Sequence record: PP889479.1 | Direction: 5' to 3' (one strand) | Origin: Klebsiella phage phi1_146029 | DNA: 64,000 bases | In this document: positions 7,610-7,888 of the stretch, in pieces | Position numbering within the stretch: position 1 is the first letter of the stretch | Layout: every line of letters starts with the position of its first letter | Translations under genes and position numbers: made by a program | Notes under the pieces: generated by a model | Told to the model about the DNA's origin: nothing | The model's input: the letters and a program-made list of their open reading frames with translations, nothing else | The model's database searches: none

Positions 7610-7888
7610 ATGAATCGTCAAGATTTTATCGCACATATCGCCCAAACTCAGGGTGTGACCAAAACCGAAGCTGAAAAAACTGTCGCGTCCTTTATCGCTG
7701 GTATCAACTCTGCCGTCGCTGCTGGCCAATCCGTTCAACTCGTCGGGTTCGGCACCTTCGAAGTGAAACATCAGGAAGCCCGCGCTGGCCGCAACCCGCT
7801 GACCGGGGCTGCGCTGACAATCGAAGCGAAAAATGTCGTCAAATTCAAAGTCGGCGAAACTCTGAAAAACGTCGCCAACGGCAAATAA
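7610..7888 (+). CDS. HU/IHF-family (type II) DNA-binding protein
   Basis: Close to bacterial HU (MNKSQLI...GFGTF.V..R.AR.GRNP.TG) over its full 92 aa. Strong RBS GGAG. Confidence 0.9.
   Translation: MNRQDFIAHIAQTQGVTKTEAEKTVASFIAGINSAVAAGQSVQLVGFGTFEVKHQEARAGRNPLTGAALTIEAKNVVKFKVGETLKNVANGK

Follow-up and report, generated by a model that had tools for sequence, protein, structure and literature searches.

A core-genome HU-family protein of a Klebsiella Taipeivirus with genes for hydroxymethyluracil-derived DNA: a probable architectural protein and, at most, a functional analogue of TF1

The subject of this report is a gene encoding an HU-family DNA-binding protein in Klebsiella phage phi1_146029 (sequence record PP889479.1). 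The DNA analyzed, referred to below as the window, is a stretch of 64,000 nucleotides (nt), in which a preliminary description had placed a bacterial-type HU homologue at positions 7610 to 7888. The gene and the elements that directly flank it are the following:

7516-7564, plus strand: conserved upstream block of about 50 nt, near-invariant in five genera, candidate promoter or operator
7598-7601, plus strand: Shine-Dalgarno sequence GGAG, 8 nt before the ATG, conserved in the five genera aligned and annotated as a ribosome-binding site in phage Menlow
7610-7888, plus strand: gene for the HU-family DNA-binding protein, an ATG-to-TAA open reading frame (ORF) of 92 amino acids (aa) plus stop
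7903-7930, plus strand: first hairpin of the 3' untranslated region (UTR), GTACC...GGTAC, present in the centroid fold with weak support
7934-7969, plus strand: predicted intrinsic terminator, stem at 7938-7959, AAGCCGGGG-ATTA-CCCCGGCTT, with the loop ATTA, followed by a T run
7977-7988, plus strand: conserved GGGTAAACTATA element, located after the terminator and before the start of the downstream helicase gene, invariant in four genera

The product of 7610-7888 matches the Pfam profile PF00216 (Bac_DNA_binding) over the full length of the profile, with residues 1-90 aligned to positions 1-90 of 90 (E = 3.7e-30; 104.5 bits against a cutoff of 22.4 bits), and it also matches the phage protein family phrog_379, labeled 'DNA binding protein' (E = 2.3e-35). 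A sequence search of the PDB retrieved HU proteins at E values of 1e-18 to 1e-20, with bit scores that decreased from Firmicutes HU (74) through E. coli HUα (64.5), HUβ (62.4), and IHFα (51) to TF1 of Bacillus phage SPO1 (43-49); an engineered single-chain IHF reached the top score solely because it contains two domains. A monomer model of the phage HU was built with AlphaFold2 from 50 homologues. It has a mean predicted local distance difference test (pLDDT) score of 96.8 and is composed of helices at residues 3-14 and 18-37, five strands, and a last helix at residues 83-89. The top Foldseek matches of this model were all HU or IHF proteins, with a template modeling (TM) score of 0.90 and a root-mean-square deviation of 1.4 Å to the Anabaena HU-DNA cocrystal 1P51. 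Both the GFGTF aromatic core and the arm ARAGRNPLTG, which contains the R-x-G-R-N-P motif and the intercalating Pro63, are intact. Within the HU clade of the phage family Ackermannviridae, the arm residues R58, G60, R61, N62, and P63 are conserved at 95-100%, and the hydrophobic dimer core formed by F47, F50, and F79 is conserved as well. These results leave very little doubt that the gene encodes a functional HU-family DNA-binding protein, as had been claimed. It is the only HU-family ORF within the window and, being encoded by a single gene, the protein is presumably a homodimer.

A protein with 100% identity has been deposited for several Klebsiella Taipeivirus phages, and the database labels for this gene range from 'DNA binding protein', 'HU', and 'HU-beta' to 'transcription factor 1', 'tf1', and 'hypothetical'. 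An antisense ORF of 167 aa (7520-8023, minus strand) that spans the whole HU gene was rejected as spurious; it is interrupted by 5-6 stop codons in Vi01, phiEa2809, and 3M, and it is the plus frame that is under purifying selection. In the record of phage Croc_ER14 this antisense ORF is called 'hypothetical protein' at the place where HU should be, and a few other records leave HU 'hypothetical' or unlabeled.

The 3 kb around the HU gene are 98% identical to the Klebsiella Taipeivirus phages Croc_ER14, Menlow, Magnus, and UPM 2146. By this similarity the phage is a Klebsiella Taipeivirus of the Ackermannviridae, that is, a ViI-like phage, and it can be called T4-like only in a loose sense. The earlier designation as a T4-like phage therefore had to be changed, although T4-type replication genes and late promoters are present: the window encodes homologues of gp46/47, the late sigma factor gp55, gp32, UvsX, and NrdAB of the T4 type.

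To describe the distribution of the gene, a tblastn search was made over 50,697 phage records. This search yielded HU homologues in 580 records, and at least 268 records hold a copy with an identity of 60% or more. Identity to the HU of the window is at least 95% in Taipeivirus, 78-79% in Kuttervirus (Vi01, CBA120-like), 76% in Agtrevirus, 74% in Limestonevirus, 57% in Miltonvirus, and 52% in Nezavisimistyvirus, and in all six genera HU fills the slot directly upstream of a DinG-like helicase. Among four genera, the pairwise ratio of nonsynonymous to synonymous substitutions (dN/dS) of the HU gene is 0.10-0.22. In the core genome of 150 enterobacterial ViI-like phages (85 proteins), as tabulated in Table 5 of PMC10892097, a 'putative DNA binding protein' adjoins a 'putative ATP-dependent helicase'; the same table contains a separate 'putative histone like protein' beside the topoisomerase II genes, and ViI-like phages may carry two nucleoid-protein-like genes. 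The gene as such is already known, being an annotated core gene of this phage family, and many phages encode an HU.

The preliminary description had proposed a phylogeny against host HU, IHF, and TF1. We calculated a neighbor-joining tree with bootstrap values, a fast distance method that, with 92 residues, does not resolve deep branches. The phage HUs formed a clade of their own (bootstrap 91) inside HU, with IHF outside, and the two E. coli proteins HUα and HUβ paired with each other (bootstrap 91), apart from the phage HUs; no grouping with TF1 was supported (42%). The phage HU is 42% and 41% identical to E. coli HUα and HUβ, respectively, and 31.5% identical to either IHF subunit, and on these grounds it is classified as an HU and not as an IHF. 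In a database of 5.8 billion proteins, identity drops abruptly from 69-70% in the phage clade to about 53% at most in assorted environmental bacteria, and thus there is no close bacterial donor. The composition of the gene lies within the phage's own range (z = 1.55 for GC content and 0.55 for GC content at third codon positions).

These data bear on an explanation that had been named from the start, a recently acquired host-derived moron without a dedicated role. In its favor, many bacteria have HU genes, and the 580 records show such genes in a variety of phages that are not related to one another. The conserved slot in six genera, the place in the core genome, the dN/dS of 0.1-0.2, the separate clade, the 41-42% identity to enterobacterial HU, with no bacterial protein above about 53%, the phage-like composition, and the conserved regulatory flanks all contradict it, and we reject this explanation. 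The gene was fixed early in the enterobacterial Ackermannviridae and has been kept under purifying selection.

The gap upstream of the HU gene measures 117 nt, about 80 nt of which are strongly conserved over five genera. The near-invariant block at 7516-7564 is found in Taipei-, Kutter-, Limestone-, Agtre-, and Nezavisimistyvirus, although the gene upstream of it varies among genera, and a 31-mer taken from it is unique in the window. The block contains two promoter-like pairs that are offset by 11 bp, TTCAAT-N18-TGTAAT and TTGTTA-N18-TGTAGT, and an alternative pair, TTTATT-N17-TAAGCT; of the candidate -10 hexamers, TAAGCT has the key A at position 2, whereas TGTAAT and TGTAGT do not. Two known promoter types were considered and rejected. 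A middle promoter with a T4 MotA box does not fit, since TGCTTTA at 7516-7522 is replaced by CGCTTTA in other genera and its distance to the nearest TAnnnT is 19 nt, where 11-13 nt would be required, and for a canonical sigma-70 promoter there is a single 9/12 match, TCGGCA-16-AATAAT, whose -35 element is not conserved. An RNA element in the 5' leader of HU was ruled out, since the leader folds no better than shuffled sequences (z = +1.17) and an Rfam scan found no family, giving only a chance match of 19.6 bits in the 3' region against a threshold of 114 bits. As neither a gain in RNA folding nor an Rfam family was found, the upstream block is likelier to be a DNA-level signal, that is, a promoter or operator.

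The motif GTAAGCTGTA is located at 7541, inside this block. The pattern GTAARCTRTA occurs twice in the 64 kb versus 0.6 occurrences expected, at 7541-7550 in the HU upstream block and at 7979-7988 before the helicase gene. GCTTTWT stands about 17-19 nt ahead of each copy, and both copies lie within blocks that are conserved across genera. The pair may represent a small promoter class or the site of a regulator.

On the other side of the gene, the 3' UTR folds with -35.6 kcal/mol (z = -3.67), the stem of the hairpin at 7934-7969 has compensatory changes between GC and AU at two pairs between genera, and a terminator is annotated after HU in the Menlow record. Judged from these features, the hairpin is a convincing intrinsic terminator. 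At the position of the first hairpin (7903-7930), other genera have a hairpin of unlike sequence. The claim that the HU gene has its own promoter region and a strong terminator was thus confirmed for the terminator and for the existence of a conserved upstream block, whereas for the exact promoter there are candidates only.

The genes next to HU in the window are the following:

6855-7181, plus strand: superinfection exclusion protein of the P22 gp17 type (PF17420, E = 2.6e-43), the gene before the LysM protein
7163-7492, plus strand: LysM-domain protein of 109 aa, upstream of HU, in which the only domain found is LysM
8014-9735, plus strand: DinG/Rad3-like helicase, the conserved downstream neighbor (Pfam Helicase_C_2, ResIII, DEAD)

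The order HU, helicase, a conserved minus-strand gene, and RNase H is the same in 6/6 genera, and in the loci that reach far enough (Menlow, Croc_ER14, and 3M) the late sigma factor and gp47/46 come next. The neighbors of HU are genes of replication, recombination, and late transcription.

Some further observations were made on this region. The 109-aa LysM protein carries the label 'endolysin' in several records. The 711-bp gene Menlow_118, which in most other Taipeivirus phages lies between the Vi01_114 homologue and a 91-aa ORF, is absent from the window (6582-6599), from Croc_ER14, and from Bestiario; the Vi01_114 homologue is intact in the window (5842-6582, 246 aa) and frameshifted in Menlow. 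In Vibrio phage K452 the slot before the helicase (2880-3332 of the compared region) is occupied by a 150-aa basic protein with a pI of 9.9, a ParB-N-like 'DGSHR' motif, and no Pfam match, which may have taken the place of HU as a DNA-binding protein without being homologous to it.

Three exact T4-type late promoters, TATAAATA, are present in the window, at 10538, 34255, and 39518, all on the minus strand and 25-35 nt before the start codons of a 284-aa conserved protein, a baseplate hub subunit, and the tail tube protein, respectively, of which at least the latter two are annotated as structural. They fit the gp55-type late sigma factor encoded in the window. No TATAAATA site was found upstream of HU, which shares its strand and its cluster with the replication genes, and this arrangement suggests that HU is expressed before the late phase.

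Packaging of modified DNA had been one of the roles originally envisaged, and the protein could in principle condense DNA in the capsid or enter the next cell together with the injected DNA. A precedent exists in the HU-like virion protein pA104R of African swine fever virus (ASFV), described as a late structural protein in PMC12882912. In virions of the ViI-like phage Sajous1 that had been purified with cesium chloride and analyzed by liquid chromatography-tandem mass spectrometry, about 60 proteins were found, including several DNA-associated ones, and within Table 6 of PMC10892097 this HU is not among them. This non-detection is a weak negative, because small basic proteins yield few peptides. 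Combined with the lack of a late promoter before HU, whereas structural genes of the window have one, and with the position of HU among the replication genes and on their strand, it argues against a packaging role, which is disfavored; we regard a virion function as very unlikely.

A second part of the window concerns the chemistry of the phage DNA. The genes relevant here are the following:

42388-43167, plus strand: 5-hydroxymethyldeoxyuridine (5-hmdU) DNA kinase (PF18748 HMUDK_HMUD1, E = 1.4e-105), immediately upstream of the thymidylate synthase (TS) homologue
43164-44222, plus strand: TS-family enzyme, probable deoxyuridine monophosphate (dUMP) hydroxymethylase (PF00303, E = 2.3e-15)
45336-45854, plus strand: phage ACT-like domain protein (PF24021, E = 3.2e-80), the last gene of the cluster of kinase, TS homologue, and dUTPase-like genes

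The 5-hmdU DNA kinase is the signature enzyme of post-replicative thymidine hypermodification. The TS homologue has kept the catalytic Cys and has an Asn aligned to N177, the residue with which TS reads uracil; its best PDB match, the cytosine-specific cytidine monophosphate (CMP) hydroxymethylase MilA (5b6d), has an Asp at the equivalent position. The earlier suggestion that the enzyme is uracil-specific is in agreement with this. A dUTPase_2-type enzyme follows the TS homologue, and a dCMP deaminase is annotated in the record of the Taipeivirus Magnus. The ACT-like protein may regulate the nucleotide-modification genes in response to a small molecule. In many records, among them Menlow, many Ackermannviridae, and Vibrio, Pseudomonas, and Bordetella phages, the 5-hmdU DNA kinase is labeled 'terminase small subunit', which appears to be a propagated annotation error.

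In phage ViI, hydroxymethyluracil (hmU) is incorporated, phosphorylated on the DNA, serinylated, and decarboxylated to 5-(2-aminoethoxy)methyluridine, 5-NeOmdU (PMC5889632, PMC8989533), which is present at about 40% of the T positions of ViI DNA (PMC11721090). The Klebsiella Taipeivirus 0507-KN2-1 is among the listed carriers of the kinase (PMC5889632, PMC8989533). From its gene content, the DNA of the phage studied here is almost certainly hmU-derived and hypermodified and, by analogy with ViI, the mature DNA is probably hypermodified of the 5-NeOmdU type and not plain hmU. The proposed modified-DNA setting hence stands as regards the hmU precursor genes and the kinase, with the change that plain hmU is probably not the form found in the mature DNA.

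Considering all these data, we propose that phage DNA is the main target of the phage HU and that the protein functions in replication, recombination, or late transcription; we assign this reading a probability of roughly 55%. The protein would be a small dimer whose two beta-arms enter the minor groove and which bends DNA irrespective of its sequence. It would be made in early or mid-infection from a short unit that extends from the conserved upstream element to the strong terminator. Its place would be on the replicating DNA of the phage, where it would assist replication, recombination, or the switch to late transcription as an architectural cofactor. This DNA would contain hmU and would then be hypermodified, and binding in the minor groove would tolerate thymine adducts in the major groove. 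In role and genomic setting the protein would resemble SPO1 TF1, from which it would differ in having been recruited independently.

Several points weigh against this proposal. The host supplies abundant HU of its own, which leaves the need for a phage copy unexplained. In the literature searched, no expression, binding, or knockout data were found for any HU of the Ackermannviridae. Relatives that infect Vibrio and Aeromonas have kept the helicase, and in them the slot does not contain HU. The suggested pre-late timing is based on the lack of an upstream late promoter and from the orientation of the gene, and the matches to sigma-70 promoters are weak. In addition, Pseudomonas phage M6, whose DNA carries the hmU-derived 5-NedU, has no HU according to a six-frame search of its whole genome with hidden Markov models (best E = 0.025), and therefore a phage HU is not generally required for hmU-type DNA chemistry.

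A more specific role is possible, though distinctly less probable than the one proposed: the protein could be a true TF1 analogue that prefers hmU-containing or hypermodified phage DNA over host DNA and that marks or organizes phage DNA selectively. For TF1 itself the preference for hmU DNA is a measured property (PMID 8764400), and its 37-bp site has likewise been measured (PMC2528193). The phage encodes an hmU pathway, a large share of the thymines of ViI DNA is replaced, as described above, and an HU gene beside replication genes is found in two hmU myovirus lineages that are not related to each other, the SPO1-like and the ViI-like phages. The loss of basic residues from the DNA face (R55Q, K83E, and E51) could also suit a DNA that carries cationic adducts. 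The wider distribution of the genes, M6 included, points in the other direction. The kinase is carried by 54 Pseudomonas and 45 Vibrio phage records, and neither genus is among the ten commonest names of HU carriers, the tenth of which has 10 records; conversely, the HU-carrying groups of Ralstonia (94), Flavobacterium (29), and Burkholderia phages (13) are missing from the list of ten genera with the kinase, which goes down to a genus with 6 records. The association of HU with hmU-type DNA is limited to two lineages.

The comparison of the sequences gives a similar picture. The TF1 family was represented by SPO1 TF1, by its counterparts in CP-51 and Exiguobacterium phage 132, which belong to the hmU-containing Herelleviridae, and by that of Lysinibacillus phage LysYB1; IMG/VR has few close relatives of TF1, and these added no information. 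The phage HU and TF1 are 39% identical, and the smallest clade that joins them has a bootstrap value of 42% and also includes bacterial HUs. Position 61 of the arm is Arg in the phage HU, Phe in TF1, CP-51, and Exiguobacterium phage 132, and His in LysYB1; the core reads GFGTF in the phage HU versus GFLNI in TF1; and the phage HU ends with ...NGK, two residues past the HU core, while TF1 has a C-terminal extension of 9 residues and the TF1 family has 9-17 extra residues. Thus, three properties of the TF1 family at the sequence level (orthology, Phe61/GFLNI, and the C-terminal extension) are lacking in the phage HU, and one property is shared, namely that the encoding phage makes hmU via dUMP hydroxymethylation, with a TS homologue and the kinase. 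The suggestion of a TF1 analogue holds for the similar setting and fails for orthology.

One group of residues is common to both families, namely Glu83, Lys80, Lys86, and a basic residue 3 that is not accompanied by an acidic residue 26. According to Grove's model, an acidic residue 26 ties up the basic residue 3, which otherwise is free for distal DNA contacts and accounts for the 37-bp site of TF1 (PMC2528193). Glu83 (7856-7858 in the window, 'GExLK') is fixed in six Ackermannviridae genera and is also present in SPO1, CP-51, and phage 132. At this position, 101 bacterial HUs have mainly Lys (79%), followed by Ala and Ser, with Glu outside the three commonest residues, and 80 HUs from viral contigs in IMG/VR have Lys in 55 cases and Glu in 2, both from Ackermannviridae; the idea that Glu83 is a general trait of viral HUs was rejected for this reason. 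In HU, Lys83 is part of the 'phosphate lock' and of the lysine pit, and DNA binding is weakened in a G82E/K83E mutant (PMC4966879). Glu83 was, however, picked after the fact from 11 clade-specific positions of the phage HU, and the other two matches to TF1 among these positions, V36 and A89, are not conserved in the TF1 family. As a single post hoc position out of 11, it is treated here as an unexplained coincidence or a possible convergence and not as evidence of a shared function. We offer only as a speculation, and a doubtful one, that the Ackermannviridae HU converged on a TF1-like DNA-contact surface, with Glu83 and a free basic residue 3, and lost Arg55 while working on DNA with positively charged hmU-derived thymines; such a surface would distinguish phage DNA from host DNA or would resist a phage-made anti-HU factor. 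If so, the possession of an own HU together with hmU-type DNA would be a recurring solution, found in SPO1-like phages, in ViI-like phages, and in the hmU-rich dinoflagellates with their HU-like chromatin proteins.

Resistance to an anti-HU factor leads to an explanation in which the target is the host. The phage HU would remodel or poison the nucleoid of the host, for instance as a heterodimer with HUα/β, or it would be an inhibitor-resistant replacement for a host HU that has been inactivated. The SPO1 protein Gp46 blocks host HU (HBsu) and needs the K80/K83/K86 patch for this (PMC8892312), so that Glu83 could confer resistance, and the conserved dimer core F47, F50, and F79 makes heterodimers conceivable. 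Yet a search of the window, which covers 64 of about 158 kb, gave no Gp46 homologue (best E = 0.7), no anti-HU factor is known in the Ackermannviridae, the idea is built on a single residue, and the gene is located among replication genes and not in an early host-takeover cluster. A host-directed function is therefore considered unlikely, and the reading that we prefer is still the one given above, with phage DNA as the main target.

The broader question is how DNA-organizing proteins cope with genomes in which about 40% of the thymines bear bulky cationic adducts. Should the phage HU prefer modified DNA, TF1 (1980s-90s) would be its only predecessor as a nucleoid protein adapted to a non-canonical base, and the protein could be used in infected cells to distinguish the DNA of the phage from that of the host. 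Since ViI-like phages serve in biocontrol and therapy, there is some practical interest in whether this core gene is essential. Our analysis also corrects recurrent annotation errors, both the hmU DNA kinase labeled as 'terminase small subunit' and the antisense ORF called instead of HU.

In comparison with known systems, the phage HU is closest to the bacterial HUs, represented by E. coli HupA/HupB, Bacillus HBsu, and Anabaena HU, with which it shares its length, the fold, the GFGTF core, Arg58, Arg61, and Pro63. The 'phosphate lock' backbone positions Gly46 and Gly82 are kept as in bacterial HU, and the pI of 9.8 is close to the 9.6-9.7 of the bacterial proteins. The phage clade differs from them on the DNA face, where Arg55 (Arg in 96% of bacterial HUs) is replaced by Gln and Lys83 by Glu, and where Glu51 and Ser41 are found, and in the turn of helix 2, which reads AAGQS versus K(E/K)GD. 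Unlike the bacterial genes, the gene is encoded by a virulent phage and is flanked by phage regulatory elements. IHF (E. coli IhfA/IhfB) has the fold and the arm motif in common with the phage HU and differs in identity (31.5%), in its position in the tree, and in having two subunits versus a single gene. Other viral HUs are numerous (PHROG 379, with the 580 phage records and hundreds of IMG/VR contigs) and mostly retain Arg55 (72/80) and Lys83 (55/80), unlike the distinct, lineage-specific clade of the Ackermannviridae; the solved structure of ASFV pA104R is among the fold matches of the phage HU model.

With TF1, the Ackermannviridae HU shares its general circumstances. Both are HU-family proteins of large virulent myoviruses that replace thymine via dUMP hydroxymethylation, and both genes stand alone, with long flanking gaps, within a replication cluster; in SPO1 the TF1 gene has gp30 (replication) on one side and the DNA polymerase on the other, separated from each by about 120-180 nt. 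Judged by sequence and setting, the phage HU is a functional analogue of TF1 at most and not its orthologue.

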